Below, piece after piece: positions 4,436 through 11,553 of a stretch of 64,000 nt of DNA; the first letter of the stretch is position 1, and each line of letters begins with the position of its first letter. The DNA lies in the NCBI GenBank assembly GCA_965237905.1, contig OZ250172.1:1632001-1696000 (forward strand), read 5' to 3'. Position numbers and translations under genes: made by a program. The DNA is from Nitrospinaceae bacterium. Its GTDB lineage: Bacteria > Nitrospinota > Nitrospinia > Nitrospinales > Nitrospinaceae. The notes below the pieces were generated by a model. That model made no database searches. It saw only the letters and a program-made list of their open reading frames with translations, and was not told the DNA's origin.

Positions 4436-5236
4436 TCAGGGCCGTTGGGATTTTTTGACGATGTCTTTGTCGAAGTAGTTGACGGACATGCCGGCGTCGA
4501 GGACGATGCCCTGGGCGTTGATACCGCTGGCGCGTTCGCTCAGCAGAAACACCGCCGTATCGGCCACCTCCTGGGTGGTCAGCGCCTGTTTGCGCAGGGT
4601 CGACTGTTCGGCGTGCAGGTAGGAATCGATATAACCGGGAATTCCCGCCGAGGCGGAAGATTTGAGCAATCCCGCATTAACGGAATTGAACCGCACCTTT
4701 GAAAAGGCGCTGAACGATTTGGCGAGAAAGCAGAGTGAAGAATCGAGCGCGGCCTTGGCCGGTCCCATATACCCGTAGTTCTCCGCCGCCATGCGCGTCG
4801 TGGAAATGGAGATGGTCACCACCGATGCGTTGGGATCGAACCGGTCCTTGAACGCATTGGCCAGGTTGATGAGCGAGTAACAGGAAATATCCACGCACTG
4901 CAGGAAATCTTTTTTCGACGTTTCGTGAAACGGCTTCAACCCTTCGGAAAAATTGGCGAAGGCGATGGAATGCACCAGACCGTGCAGAACATCGGTCTTT
5001 GCGGATACTTCCTTTTTCAGGCGGGCGATATCTTCGTCCCGTTCCACATCGCAGACAAACGTCCGGGCGGGGTCGATGAGTTTGGCGACACTGACTTTGC
5101 GTTCCTCGGAGCGAACGCTGTATAAGACGTTGGCGTTTTCTGCCTCGAGGGTTTTGCCGATATGATAAGCGACGCTTTTTTTATTGGCGACGCCCGTCAC
5201 CAGAATGGTTTTATTTTCCAGCCCGAGGAAACTCAT
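4436..5236 (-). CDS. fabI: Enoyl-ACP reductase, FabI-like
   Basis: [28 protein letters not shown] (YxxMxxxK), RFNSVNAG. Confidence 0.85.
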
Positions 5237-5661
5237 AGCTTCTCCTCCATGAGAATGACGGTGAACTCCACCGTCACCGCCGTCTGGCCGTCCACCTGCA
5301 CTTTGCCTTTCATATAATGTGCCGGACCGATGTTTTCCACATAGTCCGCCCTAATTTCTAAAACACTGCCGGGATATACGGGATTTTTAAACTTAACGTT
5401 TTGAATCCGCGACATGACGGGAACCTGGCCGTTGGGGGTGGGGAATTTTTCCGACATCAAAATCGCGCCGGTCTGGAACACGCATTCACAGACAAGAACT
5501 CCGGGCATGATCGGGAAATCGGGATAGTGGCCCTTGAAAAACGGTTCCTCCGGATCAATGCGCTTGCGGGTGACGATGTGGTCATCGGCTTGCTCGACAA
5601 TTTCGTCGACAAACAGAAAAGGAGGACGATGGGGTATGGCGTTCAGGATTTTTTCCTGCAT
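5233..5661 (-). CDS. fabZ: 3-hydroxyacyl-ACP dehydratase, FabZ-like
   Basis: [30 protein letters not shown]. Confidence 0.88.
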
Positions 5662-6404
5662 TATAATCCGCCTGTGATTTCCAAAACGGTGCCGTTGACA
5701 TAGGCGGAGTCGCGATCCGCCAGAAACAACACAGCCCGTGCCACTTCATCCACAGTACCGAAGCGTTTCATGGGCACCTGACTTAGGTATTTTTTCTTCT
5801 GATCCTCGGGAAGATCGGCAATGAAATCGGTATCGATAAATCCGGGCGACACACAATTCACCGTGATATTCCGGCTGGCCACTTCCTTGGACAGGGACCG
5901 GGTAAACGCCTCCTGTCCCGCCTTGCTGGCGGCATAATTGGCCTGCCCCGCGAACCCGTACCGGCCGATGGGGGAAGTGATATTAACGATCCTTCCGTAC
6001 TTATGCCGCATCAGATGTTGCACCGCTAACTTGCTCATATGGTACGTTCCCGTCAGGTTGGTGTGGATGACATCATCCCAATCCTCAACCGACATCATCC
6101 CGACCACGGAGTCGCGCCGTATCCCGGAGTTATTCACGAGAATCTCAAACTGTTTAAAATTTTCATCCACATACTTAAAAAACTCAACGACATCGTTATG
6201 CTCGGAAACATCAAATTGCCTGAGGTGGATGCGGTCCTTGTATTTTTCGTTGACTTTTTGAAACTTTTGCGCGGCCGAGGTATCGGAACGGTAAGTGGCG
6301 ATCACTTGAGCGCCGGTGGCGAGAAATGCTTCGGCTACGCCCCGACCGATTCCGCGCGTGCCACCGGTCACAATAACAGTTTGATCTTTGAAATCGAAAT
6401 TCAC
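5661..6404 (-). CDS. fabG: 3-oxoacyl-ACP reductase, FabG-like
   Basis: TGGTRGIG, LVNNSGIRRD, GQANYAASKAG, VSPGFIDT. Confidence 0.9.
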   Translation of the reverse strand: MNFDFKDQTVIVTGGTRGIGRGVAEAFLATGAQVIATYRSDTSAAQKFQKVNEKYKDRIHLRQFDVSEHNDVVEFFKYVDENFKQFEILVNNSGIRRDSVVGMMSVEDWDDVIHTNLTGTYHMSKLAVQHLMRHKYGRIVNITSPIGRYGFAGQANYAASKAGQEAFTRSLSKEVASRNITVNCVSPGFIDTDFIADLPEDQKKKYLSQVPMKRFGTVDEVARAVLFLADRDSAYVNGTVLEITGGL

Positions 6405-6480
6405 GATAAATGGATGGGAAAGAAGAAGGAAAGAGACAACAAAAACTTAACTTGTTGGATGGATTTTCCGTTCGCGCAAT

Positions 6481-7929
6481 TTATACGCTGACGGTTTCCA
6501 GTTCCGGTTTGGGTTCGCACACCGCGTGTAAGAATTTATCCACCTCATTGGCCGCAATCACTCCGTAATTGGCCGCACCCAACCAACCGGACATGATAAT
6601 CCCCACCGAACCGGCGTGGAACAACCCCGCAACCTGCTTGGGAAGATCCTTACTGATCGCGAGCCCTTCAAACTTGGTCCCGAAAGACACGCCACCCGGA
6701 TGCGCGGTGTAGCGTTTGAAGGTCATCGGGGTGGAAGCTTCCAGGTGACCTATTTTTTTGCGTACATCAGGGACGTATTTTTCCAAAGCGTCCAGCGTCC
6801 GGTCGATCAAATGTTTCTTTTTCTTATCGTATTCCTGACGGGTCAAATGAGCCCAGTCCTTGAACCGCGCATTGGTCGACGCCACAATGGAGTACATGTT
6901 CAAACCCGGCCGGGTTTCCGGATAATAAAAACTGAACGTCCGGCTGGTGGTCTCCGGTTCCAAGAGAGATGCCGAACTGAATTCCTTTTCCTGGGAGGTG
7001 AACAGCAGGTCTCCAACATTATCGATCTTCTCGCCTCTTTTAATGCCCATATACACTTGGCAACTGCTGTCATTCAACCGGACTTTTTTAACTTCATCAA
7101 GAAAATCCGGGGAAAAATGTTCGTCACTGGTCAATTTGTGTATGGTGCTTAATATATTGGAATTGGACAAAACCGTTTTGGCTGGGATCATACGCCCCTG
7201 AACTTCCACCCCTTGCACAGTTTTATCATCCACCACTACGCGATCGACCATGCAATGGGTACGGATGTCTACTCCATTTTTCAACAATTCCTTTTTCATC
7301 TTTTTGATCAATTCGCTCGTGCCGCCTTTAAAGGTGTACACCCCTTTGTCCATGAAGTTGGCAAACACGATCCCGTAAGTGATCGCCGGATCGTCCAAAG
7401 TAGAACCGTTGGCGTAAGTGATCGGTTCCATCAACAGGCGGTGAACATCGGTCCGGCCGGGAAAAAACTTTTCGAACAATTCGCGGGTGGTCATCGACAG
7501 GTCGTCGTAAAAATTCATCGCCCGCACGGTTTGGAAAAAGTCGTCGATGGTTTCTTTAACAATCCCGAACCGGTCCTTCATCAGACGGGTAAAATCGTTT
7601 TTATCAAAATTGGTCCAGAAGGAGAATTGAGGGTTGTCGAAGCGGATATTCTTGAGGCGAACGATGGAGTCGGCGATTTCCTGGGTCCAGTATTTTCGGC
7701 AGGTTTTGATCATACCGGTGGGAAAGCCGTGCAGAGAAATATCCAGAATATGGCCGCCTTTACGTTTGAACCACGTGGCCAGTCCACCCAGATTATAGTG
7801 ATGTTCGAGGATGAGGACCTTGTGTCCCAATTTGGCCAGCTTGTTGGCGGCGGTCAAACCCGCCAAGCCACTGCCAATTACAATCGTATCGTAAGCCGAC
7901 TTGATTCCCTTCAGCCAGTCTTTAGCCAT
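6481..7929 (-). CDS. FAD-dependent oxidoreductase, phytoene desaturase/CrtISO/RetSat family (paralog 2)
   Basis: GSGLAG Rossmann motif, [24 protein letters not shown]...GVSFG, GLFHAG. Confidence 0.85.
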
Positions 7930-9341
7930 TAAATTCTCCCGTATTCCGATTTGGCTTCTGCTTGCAAAATATGCAGGTTAGCCATTGAAATTCCGCTCAA
8001 TGTCGCACCAATGATACCCAAAAATCCCTGATCTGTCCCACAAATAAATAAGTTTTTTACAGGTGTCCGCCCACTCTTTATTTTGGTGGGAGAACCGTAC
8101 ACGGCACCATTGAGATGGCCGGTATATTTGAATATGGTCTTAGGCGTAAAAGAGTCAATGTATATAATATGATCGCTGAAATCGGGGAAATAAGTCAACA
8201 ACGCATTCACCCCCCGGTCCCGATACTCCTTTTTGGCCGCTCGGTAATCGGAGCGGGCCATGTCGTCCCAAAGCTTGAAATTCGCCTGGTTGGTGAGGCG
8301 GATCACCCCCTCGGACGGGGCCTCCGGGTACTGAAAGTTGCTGGGACAGCACAAAACACCACTGGTAACATCGGTCAAACCCTTGGGAACGCGGTACTTA
8401 AAGCGTGATTCGGTGCTGTAAAACACGATGCTCTTATCATATCCAACATCTTTCGGCATGCGATCCAGCACGAATATCGACTCGATAAACGACATTTGGC
8501 CGATTTCCAGGTCGGATTCTTCGACAATTCGCGGATGACACAGGCGTAAGGTCTCGACAATCCCGGCAGAAGAGAGGACCTTGTCCGCCACCAGCGTTTC
8601 GCCATTTTCCAGCTGGATGGATTGCAACTCGCCGTCTTTATGCGCGATGCTTTGCACTCCCGCGCCCATGCGTAATTCGCCGCCGAGACTCTTGTATTTA
8701 TCAACCAGCAGTTTCAGGATATAAGGCATCCCGCCGATGGGCTTGGCGAATCCTTCCATGAAAAGGCTCTTGAACATGATCACGAACTGGTAGAAATCCA
8801 TGTCGCCTTCCGCCGCGTTCCCGTAGTACATGATGGGACAATACAGCATGTCGATCAGCACCGGGTCGGTCAGGCAGGATTCCAGCACCTTGCGAGAGGA
8901 AATCCGTTGGCTGTCGTCCAGATCCAGCTCATTGAATTCGCGGATATGAGTGAGCAGTTTCTGAAACCCGTCAATTTGCTTGGGAAACTGCTCCGCGATT
9001 TCCTGTTCCATGAACTCGAATTGATTGGTGAACCGGATCGATTTGTCAGGGAAGCGGATTCCCGACATCTCCTGCGGACACAGGCGGAACTCGTCGTGCT
9101 TGAACCGCAGTTGCTTGAGAAGTTTGCCCAGCGGAGAACTACGCACACCCTTCGGCGTGTAATTGGTCATCGCGTGCAGGCCCACGTCGAACGTACGATG
9201 CTTGCGGGTATAAAAAGAATTGAGTCCACCAACCTCGACATGCTTTTCGACGATCAAAACTTTCTTCTCGAACATCGCCAGACGAATGCCCGCGGCTAAT
9301 CCGGACAGACCGGAGCCTATTATGATGGCGTCATAGTTCAT
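7929..9341 (-). CDS. FAD-dependent oxidoreductase, phytoene desaturase/CrtISO/RetSat family (paralog 1)
   Basis: [30 protein letters not shown]...[15 protein letters not shown]...GIIGATLSG. Confidence 0.85.
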
Positions 9342-9348
9342 GGTCTTG

Positions 9349-9377
9349 ATTGTAAATGAGGCTGGGGATCAAGTAAA
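9349..9377 (-). promoter_or_regulatory. Candidate internal sigma70 promoter, leaderless, for the flavoprotein-fabG-fabZ-fabI block
   Basis: Minus strand TTTACT-N17-TACAAT-N7-ATG(9341); no Shine-Dalgarno before the ATG. Confidence 0.5.
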
Positions 9378-9431
9378 CCGCATGAGCGGCAGGGGATCAC
9401 AAAGGAAGGCCGGGGAAATCCTGAAACGGCT

Positions 9432-9695
9432 TCAACGGACCAGTTCGTCGTCTTTCAGGCGCGGAAACAGGTACTCGACACTGCTCGCCATCGACACCAG
9501 TTCCTGGTAGTCCTTTTCAGGTACTTCCAGGTTGAAGCGTTTACGCAATTCCATCACGATATCGAGGAAATCCATCGAGTCCAGATCGAACTGGTCCCGC
9601 AGTTTCTCTTCGTCTTTGATGGTGCTTAAATCTTCGTCCGGAGCAATGTCGGAGATGATATTGAGGATGGCTTGTCGAACTTGTTCCCTGGTCAT
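9432..9695 (-). CDS. Acyl carrier protein, cluster-specific
   Basis: 87 aa, acidic, phosphopantetheine motif LDSMDFLDIVMEL; AGGAG RBS. Confidence 0.92.
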   Translation of the reverse strand: MTREQVRQAILNIISDIAPDEDLSTIKDEEKLRDQFDLDSMDFLDIVMELRKRFNLEVPEKDYQELVSMASSVEYLFPRLKDDELVR

Positions 9696-9749
9696 TCGGC
9701 GCGTTCTCCTAAAGTTTGATGGTAGGTCAAAACTACCTGAATTTCAATA

Positions 9750-10988
9750 CTATTTTTGATATTTGCGAACGATCAAAACGGAATTAATGCCGAACATTCC
9801 GAACGAATTGTTCATGATAATACTCACGTTGTCCAGCAGTTCCGGCGTATTCGCCACCAGATTATTGAGCTGGCATTCCGGGTCGATGGTGTCGAGGTTG
9901 ATGGTCGGGTGGACATAGCCATCCTCAAAGGCGGGCAGATTGCCGGTGAGCTCCAACGCCCCCGCCGCGCCCATGGTGTGCCCCATGTAACTCTTTGTAT
10001 TATTGATCCGTGTGCGGCCCTCCATGCCGAACACCTGGCGTACTGCCTTGCACTCCTGGATATCGCCCAGCTGAGTGGCGGTGGCATGGGTGTTGAGGAT
10101 GTCGATATCCTCCGGTTTCAATCCGGCCCGGTCCAGCGCCAGCCGCATGCATTCGGCCTGCCGCCCCGGCTCCGGTAGGATATAATCGTAAGCATCTGAA
10201 TTACTGGCGTATCCGATAATCTCTCCATAGATTTGAGCGCCCCTTGCCTCCGCATCCGGCAGGCGTTCGAGAGTGTAGACACACCCGCCTTCTGAACAGA
10301 CGATGCCGTTGCGGTTCTTGTCAAACGGACGGCTCGCCTTGGTCGGGTCTGCGTGCTCGGCCAGTGCGCCCTCGCTCTTGAAGCTGGCAAAAATGCCGAA
10401 GGTGTGAATGCTTTCGGAGACGCCGCCCGCCAGAGCCATATCGACCTCATTCAGCCGCAACATCTGGGCTCCCTGGATGATGCCCAGGTTGCCCGCCGCA
10501 CAGGCCGCGCCAATGGCGTAATGCGGCCCGGTGATGCCCATGTTCAATGTCACCTCGCCCGCCGGGTTGTTGGCCACCGTCCGTGGGTTGTGGTGGTGCG
10601 ACCAGTACTTGGTGTCGTAACCGTACTGGCTGATGGCGTAGACCTCGTTCTCCGTCTCCACGTTGCCGTGCTCGGTGGTGCCTAGATAGACGCCGACGCG
10701 CGATTTGTCGACCGTATCGAACGCGATGCCGGAATCTGCCACCGCCTCCTGCGCACAATAGATGGCAATCGATCCTGCCCGTGTGCCGCGTCGCAGGCTC
10801 TTCTTTTTTTGATACTTGAGCTCGTCGAAATCGCACACCCCGGCCAGCACCGCGCCCATAAAACGGGTCTCAAAGTGGGTGACGCCAGACCGGCCCTCCA
10901 GCAGACTCTTGCGGAATTCCTTCAGCGAGTTGCCGTTGGGGGCCGTCAGGCCGATCCCTGTAATGACAATACGGTCCTCAAGCGGCAT
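9750..10988 (-). CDS. Beta-ketoacyl-ACP synthase, FabF/FabB-like, divergent
   Basis: RIVITGIG; Cys-His-His triad in AACAAG, NTHATAT, KSYMGHTMGAAG; SRPFDKNRNG; NNSFG. Confidence 0.9.
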   Translation of the reverse strand: MPLEDRIVITGIGLTAPNGNSLKEFRKSLLEGRSGVTHFETRFMGAVLAGVCDFDELKYQKKKSLRRGTRAGSIAIYCAQEAVADSGIAFDTVDKSRVGVYLGTTEHGNVETENEVYAISQYGYDTKYWSHHHNPRTVANNPAGEVTLNMGITGPHYAIGAACAAGNLGIIQGAQMLRLNEVDMALAGGVSESIHTFGIFASFKSEGALAEHADPTKASRPFDKNRNGIVCSEGGCVYTLERLPDAEARGAQIYGEIIGYASNSDAYDYILPEPGRQAECMRLALDRAGLKPEDIDILNTHATATQLGDIQECKAVRQVFGMEGRTRINNTKSYMGHTMGAAGALELTGNLPAFEDGYVHPTINLDTIDPECQLNNLVANTPELLDNVSIIMNNSFGMFGINSVLIVRKYQK

Positions 10989-11361
10989 AGATAAGATCCA
11001 TAGGGTGCAAGTGTCGGGGATGGTTTGGATTCAAGCCCTGGACGGGTTGGCGTTGAACAACCAAGCGAAGCCAAAACTTCGGAATTAAGGAATTTAGCAT
11101 AAAAAGGGAGGGTTTGGAAGAGGGCCGGGGTCGTTCAAAAATATCGGATGAGATTATTTTTACACAGCAATGGCTTCTACCGAATGCTATTGATATAGGC
11201 AGGCTTGGAGGGCTTGTCGCCAAAAGTGTCAAAAGAAACAGGTATTTCCGGCGTTTCAGACGTATATTATTAGAATACAGGATGGTTGGGGGGCATTGCT
11301 TTAAGGACCTTTGAGCCGAAACCCTGCCGGGTTTGCCAGGCCGTTTCAATGGAGGTGTCCC

Positions 11362-11553
11362 ATGGGACTGACTTATGATGTTTTGAAGACCAAGGTAAAA
11401 TCTGAAGGCAAGTTCACGCTGGAAGAGTTGACGTGGATGCTGGACAAAATGAAGGAAATGGACCGCACACTCGACTCCCTCAAAACCACTATGGAGGAGC
11501 GATTGAGCCGGATTGAAAGCAAGGACGACGATCACATTCCGGGTGGTATTTAA
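11362..11553 (+). CDS. Small hypothetical protein, 63 aa, coiled-coil-like
   Basis: Strong RBS GGAGGTG at 11351; charged helical sequence MGLTYDVLKTK... Confidence 0.7.
   Translation: MGLTYDVLKTKVKSEGKFTLEELTWMLDKMKEMDRTLDSLKTTMEERLSRIESKDDDHIPGGI

Follow-up and report, generated by a model that had tools for sequence, protein, structure and literature searches.

A compact type II fatty acid synthase cassette with two CrtI-fold flavoproteins as a predicted replacement of the Pfa synthase in OleABCD hydrocarbon synthesis

What would a bacterium that already has housekeeping fatty acid synthase genes make with a second set of elongation enzymes associated with two flavoproteins? This question is raised by a locus of a Nitrospinaceae bacterium (assembly GCA_965237905.1, contig OZ250172.1), located in the stretch of 64,000 nucleotides analysed here (positions 1,632,001 to 1,696,000), hereafter the window. 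Between positions 4436 and 10988 of the minus strand, seven intact open reading frames (ORFs) with one orientation encode a ketosynthase (KS), an acyl carrier protein (ACP), two flavoproteins (FP1 and FP2) and homologues of FabG, FabZ and FabI, in this order. An earlier note on this DNA had read these genes as a route, ACP-bound and possibly independent of O2, to unsaturated or otherwise modified acyl chains. A route of this kind to unsaturated chains, likely without O2, is supported here, the cassette being apart from the housekeeping locus and its flavoproteins not being carotenoid genes. What the note missed is the clear destination of the product, the OleABCD hydrocarbon pathway, and the probable nature of the cassette as a set replacing the Pfa synthase. 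Probably, the cassette represents a polyunsaturated acyl-ACP synthase of dissociated (type II) organisation, taking the place of the Pfa megasynthase and feeding OleABCD, with a C31:9-type hydrocarbon as the predicted end product.

The link with the ole genes appears first in genome content. The same samples, 487 genomes of four phyla including the four seed genomes, were searched three times, for FP2 (E<=1e-40), for OleA (NF006720, E<=1e-60, or 1e-40 in Nitrospinota) and for PfaD (TIGR02814, E<=1e-40; the control for this profile matched in B. subtilis). Outside the host, the genome-wide search covered OleA alone among the ole genes; completeness is not reported for Planctomycetota, Verrucomicrobiota and Bdellovibrionota, and misses are to be read as "not found". 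OleA accompanies FP2 in 140 of 147 genomes and PfaD in 27 of 28, and it occurs in 11 of the 312 genomes where neither FP2 nor PfaD was found. With the TIGR02814 search, PfaD was found in none of the 147 FP2 genomes, nor in the host. In Planctomycetota (151 genomes; FP2 in 30, OleA in 56, PfaD in 25), the FP2 and PfaD sets are disjoint and both lie wholly within the OleA set, one genome having OleA alone and 95 none of the three. The 141 Verrucomicrobiota genomes contain FP2 in 27 cases (26 with OleA), OleA in 28 and PfaD in 2, with no overlap between FP2 and PfaD; two OleA genomes are without FP2, one having PfaD and the other being the seed genome with KS-ACP-FP1. Bdellovibrionota (121 genomes) have OleA in 32 genomes, among them all 25 with FP2, and PfaD in none; seven small genomes carry OleA alone. 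Finally, FP2 occurs in 65 and OleA in 62 of 74 Nitrospinota genomes, both together in 59, and in the sole PfaD genome of this phylum, G485, OleA is present and FP2 was not found. Among the 25 PfaD genomes of planctomycetes, four were inspected, and in all four a pair of KS-bearing ORFs of ~2200-3050 aa lies beside oleABC. As a side observation, a small-genome Bdellovibrionota lineage (L228-L230, from G300, G316 and G323) has a compact oleABCD, complete in L228 and L229, and the searches for FP2 and PfaD gave no match in these genomes.

The link is also visible in gene order. The distance between FP2 and oleA is within 21 kb in 17/30 Planctomycetota, 14/26 Verrucomicrobiota and 21/25 Bdellovibrionota (52/81 in sum). 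At least five arrangements occur, in which oleABCD precedes the cassette, follows it or is inserted into it. One Bacteriovoracaceae locus has KS-ACP-FP1 leading directly into homologues of oleA, B, C and D, and in five metagenome loci (L114, L116, L118, L122, L126) oleABCD sits between FP1 and FP2. It is placed ahead of the cassette in L115 and L123 (oleCD in L132), oleAB comes behind it in L149, and L129 and L130 have oleABCD joined to half of the cassette, the other half being on the opposite strand. More such orders are found in genomes of Planctomycetota, Verrucomicrobiota and Bdellovibrionota. Apart from this, a divergent pair of KS genes, 26-31% identical to the cassette KS, is located on the opposite strand immediately upstream of the cassette-ole operon in L114, L116, L122, L126 and L127.

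The host genome, a single 3.09 Mb contig (C1) that is 96% complete, carries all four ole genes, unlinked from the cassette: oleA/oleB at C1:35478-37407, oleD at C1:85717 and oleC at C1:541126. In the assembly, oleA is frameshifted near C1:36002 (L224:1203). That the pathway is dead was considered and rejected: one extra base is present at this place in the contigs of two sequencing runs of a single sample, from which the assembled DNA possibly came, and the frame is open in 5/5 genomes of the same genus, which points to an assembly error. Elsewhere in the genome, a short-chain dehydrogenase/reductase gene split into two overlapping ORFs (C1:320562-321313) possibly reflects another assembly indel.

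How far can this association be carried? In a quick tree of 83 OleA sequences (L227, where no OleA passed the filter, was left out), the division is by partner and not by phylum. Twenty-one of the 22 Pfa-linked sequences, which come from three phyla, group in a single branch (SH-aLRT 100), and 58 cassette-linked ones are on the other side of the tree, together with three supplier-less sequences and one long-branch exception. Because the tree divides in this manner, the OleA sequences suggest two alternative whole modules, each travelling with its own OleA, rather than many swaps. The split by partner demonstrates functional coupling, but identity of the product does not follow from it.

The earlier note had named flavoproteins unlinked in relatives, together with these being the only fab genes, as an outcome that would refute its reading. 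In fact, FP1 and FP2 are adjacent in 46 of 47 Nitrospina-type loci, so that the arrangement is not due to chance; the full seven-gene set is present in 23 of these 47 loci, many of which stop at contig ends, the KS being located elsewhere in some. The nearest cassette loci are from Nitrospinaceae (FP1 95%). Many loci of Planctomycetota and Verrucomicrobiota have no FabG in the cassette, and a six-gene form without FabI, KS-ACP-FP1-FP2-FabG-FabZ, occurs in L140 and L142-144. Where the cassette is broken, FP1 mostly keeps with KS-ACP and FP2 with FabZ-FabI, a pattern that tells little about the pairing of the flavoproteins or their division of steps.

Several local variations may be mentioned. 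Among Nitrospinales, the KS is relocated in L009 and KS and ACP in L008 and L018, as in other Nitrospina loci, and a transposase-like gene occupies the usual place of the KS in L009 (L009:7604-8596). In many Bdellovibrionota and Planctomycetota cassettes, a conserved putative DNA-binding regulator of ~210 aa, with no NCBIfam match at 1e-20, is encoded directly upstream of the KS (L052:7864-8502; also L118, L130, L139, L180, L182, L186, L188, L190 and L272); it is absent from the cassette of the window. The L053 contig contains a mirror-image duplication centred on FP1, probably an assembly artefact.

Turning to the proteins, the cassette has the parts of a type II fatty acid synthase, with discrete KS, ACP, ketoreductase, dehydratase and enoyl reductase and all key residues in place (Table 1). 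Families were assigned with Pfam and NCBIfam: KS, ACP, two PF01593 flavoproteins, FabG, FabZ and FabI. The catalytic triad of the KS is complete (Cys163/His301/His337). The residues named here and in Table 1 for KS, ACP, FabG, FabZ and FabI are those to which we take the catalytic roles to belong; FabA-type dehydratases have a His/Asp pair instead of His/Glu. Several observations of the earlier note hold on the minus strand, namely the overlapping codons (TAATG at 7929 and 5661, ATGA at 5233-5236, the remaining gaps being 54, 90 and 76 nt), the private ACP, with LDSMD where the housekeeping ACP (C1:196993-197226) has ADSLD, and the lack in the cassette of any fabD, fabH, plsX, chain-length factor (CLF), adenylation, radical SAM or crtB gene. 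The cassette faces pheS on one side and has ispF/dxr on the other. A co-oriented 80-aa ORF (window 11311-11553, minus strand) lies upstream of the KS and has no Pfam or NCBIfam match. In a plasmid search, full-length matches reach only 21-25%.

Table 1. The seven genes of the cassette, with positions in the window.
Gene	Position	Strand	Length	Features
KS	9750-10988	-	412 aa	FabF-like, own subfamily; without chain-length-factor partner
ACP	9432-9695	-	87 aa	Private carrier; Ser40 within conserved LDSMDFLDIVMEL motif
FP1	7929-9341	-	470 aa	CrtI/CRTISO fold, FAD-binding GxGxxG; predicted to install cis double bonds
FP2	6481-7929	-	482 aa	Predicted second cis-installing enzyme
FabG-like ketoacyl-ACP reductase	5661-6404	-	247 aa	YxxxK at 157
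FabZ-type 3-hydroxyacyl-ACP dehydratase	5233-5661	-	142 aa	His45/Glu59
FabI-like enoyl-ACP reductase	4436-5236	-	266 aa	Y-x-x-M-x-x-x-K motif intact

How would such a set of enzymes work? It very probably feeds OleA, and its product is likely to be polyunsaturated and methylene-interrupted. In the Pfa case, OleA condenses 16:4n-3, predicted to be made by Pfa, into 31:9 (Allemann 2019, PMC6463001). With this chain (4Z,7Z,10Z,13Z) as the target, the private ACP would be loaded by the housekeeping FabD, FabH and AcpS, and KS, FabG and FabZ would yield a 2E-enoyl-ACP in every round. FabI would reduce this intermediate at C4, C10 and C16; at C6 and C12 it would be shifted from 2E to 3Z, and at C8 and C14 converted from 2E to 2Z. 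Besides an enoyl reductase, such a cycle would call for two types of step that form cis bonds; an oxidant would not be required. The Pfa synthase relies for both isomerisations on FabA-type domains, which carry out 2,2- and 2,3-isomerisation (PMC9702510). No FabA was found in the host genome, where the only two hot-dog dehydratases are both FabZ-type. Because of this absence of FabA, and because the flavoproteins are the only non-standard parts of the cassette, both isomerisations may be assigned to FP1 and FP2, which would act as non-redox isomerases with reduced flavin adenine dinucleotide (FAD), one step each or as a pair. OleABCD would finally join two chains into the C31:9-type hydrocarbon. 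Given a polyunsaturated product, the balance tips slightly towards isomerase rather than dehydrogenase chemistry. The most specific form of the proposal, put forward tentatively, is that of a previously uncharacterised synthase of seven small proteins that would make 16:4n-3 with no need of oxygen, FabA or Pfa, the two CrtI-fold flavoenzymes serving as position-specific isomerases of enoyl-ACP.

The two flavoproteins are distant paralogues (25-27% identity). Each keeps its own invariant residues (66 and 55 orthologue rows aligned); they are therefore two long-separated, separately conserved enzymes. The structure model of FP1 (pLDDT 93.1) has the CrtI-type FAD fold, with the carotenoid desaturase 4rep as its best match (TM 0.73, Z 31.0, rmsd 3.5, 438 aligned); for FP2, the fold was assigned from profile comparison alone. 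Since this fold is shared by desaturases and isomerases, the modelled fold by itself does not tell one from the other, and redox chemistry remains a real rival. Both CRTISO and CrtI are described as isomerising with reduced FAD, without net redox change (PMC3382138).

A possible producer has been on record since 2009. As described by Rattray 2009 (PMC2649909), Desulfotalea psychrophila makes C31:8 and C31:9 without a polyunsaturated fatty acid (PUFA) polyketide synthase, a new anaerobic PUFA route was proposed for it, and its PF01593 genes DP1860, DP2405 and DP2406 are in type II fatty acid synthase clusters, FabI being elsewhere. The six-gene form without FabI mentioned above is in this respect similar, and the FP2 relatives of L140 are named Desulforhopalus, Desulfopila and Desulfosediminicola, so that relatives of Desulfotalea carry FP2 orthologues. 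The DP2405/DP2406 locus is probably the same cassette.

A number of points weigh against the proposed pathway. The solved structures nearest to FP1 and FP2 are desaturases (4rep, 4dgk), not isomerases, and the fatty acid isomerase 2b9w ranks only 33 for the FP1 model (Z 23.0). The 2E-to-2Z step would be uphill and would have to be pulled by the selectivity of the KS. None of the 47 Nitrospina-type loci holds an ole gene within the DNA fetched; seven FP2 genomes have no OleA match (one of them, G475, a single contig of 86% completeness), and the 11 genomes in which OleA occurs without either FP2 or PfaD have to be kept in mind. The exclusivity towards PfaD is that of two inherited modules, related genomes do not count as independent cases, and the chain joined by the cassette-type OleA may be another one. 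The genome also encodes an O2-dependent membrane desaturase (295 aa, PF00487, G000:C1:2576489, L076:1360-2247), a possible O2-dependent source of monounsaturated chains. Finally, the orthology of DP2405/DP2406 to FP1/FP2 is one that we infer, not one drawn from their sequences.

The explanation that best survives beside the isomerase proposal keeps the same pathway and product, and its first two steps, but makes FP1 and FP2 FAD dehydrogenases or dienoyl reductases that act on ACP-bound chains with a quinone as acceptor, for example by extending a conjugation that would then undergo 1,4-reduction. The formation of skipped cis bonds by FAD in an unactivated chain is hard, which counts against it. 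Moreover, FabZ gives a double bond in each round, so that no oxidation is needed, and the top NCBIfam match of both flavoproteins is an isomerase family, carotenoid isomerase TIGR02730, although far under its cut-off (90 and 98 bits against 587). On the other hand, 4rep and 4dgk head the structural and profile matches, CrtI functions with oxygen or quinone (PMC3382138), and such an action on already unsaturated chains was suggested by Rattray 2009 (PMC2649909). Dehydrogenase chemistry appears possible, if rather doubtful.

It may also be imagined that the cassette supplies OleA with another chain, monounsaturated, conjugated, branched or short, and that the olefin is other than C31:9. The cassette-linked OleA sequences do stand on their own side of the tree, where the three supplier-less ones are nested. 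However, C31:8 and C31:9 are made without Pfa in Desulfotalea (PMC2649909), ordinary chains require no private synthase, as in Xanthomonas (PMC6463001), and a conjugated polyene is disfavoured by the presence of FabI and the absence of a CLF. A different chain is thus unlikely.

Is the cassette dedicated to its product, as the earlier note had it? Its ACP is its own, and a separate housekeeping locus, plsX-fabH-fabD-fabG-acpP-fabF, was located at C1:195725-201093, with fabZ in the lpx region at C1:1837858. The cassette is neither the sole fab set, an outcome that the note had named as refuting its view, nor linked to plsX/fabH/fabD. The word is overstated as regards FabI. No second FabI was found in the host; for FabK, TIGR03151 was not found and the PF03060 matches resemble GuaB and PyrD by eye; a FabV search gave no match, its positive control being equally silent. 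In four more Nitrospinales genomes (G435, G446, G465, G470), the cassette FabI is the only FabI, and FabK is missing in the three of them tested. In G484, a Nitrospinota genome that lacks the cassette, FabK is present and FabI gave no match. Since the cassette copy is the sole recognisable enoyl reductase in the host and four relatives, and cassette-less G484 has FabK, FabI is probably shared with primary fatty acid synthesis in Nitrospinales. The genome has one PPTase-family gene and three KS, all of ~415 aa; the third (C1:1546084-1547340, 418 aa) is FabF-like and apparently stand-alone, with no ACP neighbour.

These properties could suggest that the main role of the cassette is to supply the membrane with unsaturated fatty acids anaerobically, as a substitute for FabA/FabB, its use by Ole being secondary. 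The lack of FabA and of another enoyl reductase, the absence of linkage with ole in Nitrospina, and the isotope signal that the C16:1/C18:1 isomers of Desulfotalea share with its hydrocarbons (PMC2649909) would agree with this. Yet such a role is made improbable by the presence of OleA in nearly all FP2 genomes and the frequent mixing of the two gene sets at the operon level, by the 312 genomes out of 487 that do without both FP2 and PfaD, and by the membrane desaturase of the host. That FP1 and FP2 are carotenoid, squalene or hopanoid enzymes sitting among fab genes, as their fold, their database names and one squalene/phytoene synthase family gene at C1:737142 might suggest, is hardly credible and was rejected, since all carotenoid family scores are far under cut-off (also for crtI_fam, 60 and 78 bits against 238), this synthase gene is ~900 kb from the cassette, the neighbours across phyla are KS, ACP and ole genes, and two anammox CrtI-like proteins linked to fatty acid synthase genes, which are not FP1 and FP2 themselves, failed to replace CrtI (PMC4790861).

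If the OleABCD-feeding pathway is correct, several consequences may be envisaged. The cassette offers seven testable genes for a question open since 2009, that of how C31:8 and C31:9 are made in bacteria without Pfa synthase. It would bring a new kind of flavin chemistry, acting on chains bound to ACP, would join desaturases and Pfa as a third route to skipped polyunsaturation and, with 6.5 kb, would offer a modular alternative to the much larger Pfa for the engineering of polyunsaturated lipids. A C31 polyene would be predicted in Nitrospina, major marine nitrite oxidisers in which FP2 is present (N. gracilis, N. watsonii), and the range of possible C31:9 biomarker sources would be wider; the cassette would be the main C31:9 source in these nitrite oxidisers, many planctomycetes, Opitutales, Bacteriovorax relatives and Desulfocapsaceae. 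The sole FabI suggests in addition that primary lipid synthesis of Nitrospinales depends on the cassette locus. A C31 polyene is common in planctomycetes (PMC6995999). In the available text of Shulse and Allen 2011 (PMC3098273) and Yoshida 2016 (PMC4882568), C31:9 is tied to pfa genes only, and the literature searched, subscription journals being outside its coverage, contains no description of the cassette as an Ole supplier. The essential-gene supplements for Planctopirus have no "phytoene" or "amine oxidase" entry, and the cassette genes are thus not mappable there.

How does the cassette compare with known systems? The closest in function is Pfa (pfaABCDE), which together with OleABCD gives C31:9 in Shewanella, Photobacterium and Geobacter bemidjiensis (PMC6463001, PMC3098273, PMC4882568). 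Both are private KS/ACP/ketoreductase/dehydratase/enoyl reductase lines tied to oleABCD, and they fill the same slot in alternative genomes. However, the cassette consists of single-function proteins of 87-482 aa and Pfa of multidomain subunits of 2000-3000 aa, PfaA and PfaC bearing tandem ACPs, KS-CLF and FabA-type dehydratases; the cassette has one ACP, one KS, no CLF and no FabA-type dehydratase, FabI replaces PfaD, two CrtI-fold flavoproteins are added, and the OleA lineage is separate. PfaD was not found in the host, and none of its three KS, all of ~415 aa, is a multidomain PfaA/PfaC subunit. Polyene and aryl polyene type II polyketide synthases are built on a KS-CLF heterodimer and have no enoyl reductase, and the single KS with its full triad and the presence of FabI set the cassette apart from them, as the earlier note had recognised. 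The anammox precedent invoked in that note proves weak. Anammox cluster I (kuste3603-3608; PMC10139942, bioRxiv 10.64898/2026.05.19.726425) is similar by its private ACP, FabZ, FabF and phytoene-dehydrogenase-like gene, but has one flavoprotein, a KS/CLF-like FabF pair of which the second is catalytically dead, and a B12 radical SAM enzyme; the cassette differs by its second flavoprotein, its single KS and the presence of FabG and FabI. Without the B12 radical SAM gene and the dead FabF, it was rejected as a ladderane cluster, in keeping with the distinction already drawn in the note. A closer precedent is the Desulfotalea pair, two consecutively numbered PF01593 genes within a type II fatty acid synthase cluster of an organism making C31:8/C31:9; Rattray 2009 appeared before the Ole link was made, treats this locus along with radical-SAM clusters and takes the chemistry to be desaturation. 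As to the flavoproteins, CrtI, CrtD and CRTISO (4dgk, 4rep) and the P. acnes isomerase 2b9w have a fold and FAD site like those of FP1 and FP2, and the carotenoid family supplies the precedent for reduced-FAD cis-trans isomerisation (PMC3382138), but identities are ~20% or less, every curated cut-off is missed and the context is acyl-ACP, not isoprenoid. The cassette is thus real and uncharacterised; it falls outside four known families, Pfa, polyene type II polyketide synthases, the anammox cluster and carotenoid enzymes, and yet its predicted working is that of a Pfa synthase which supplies OleABCD.

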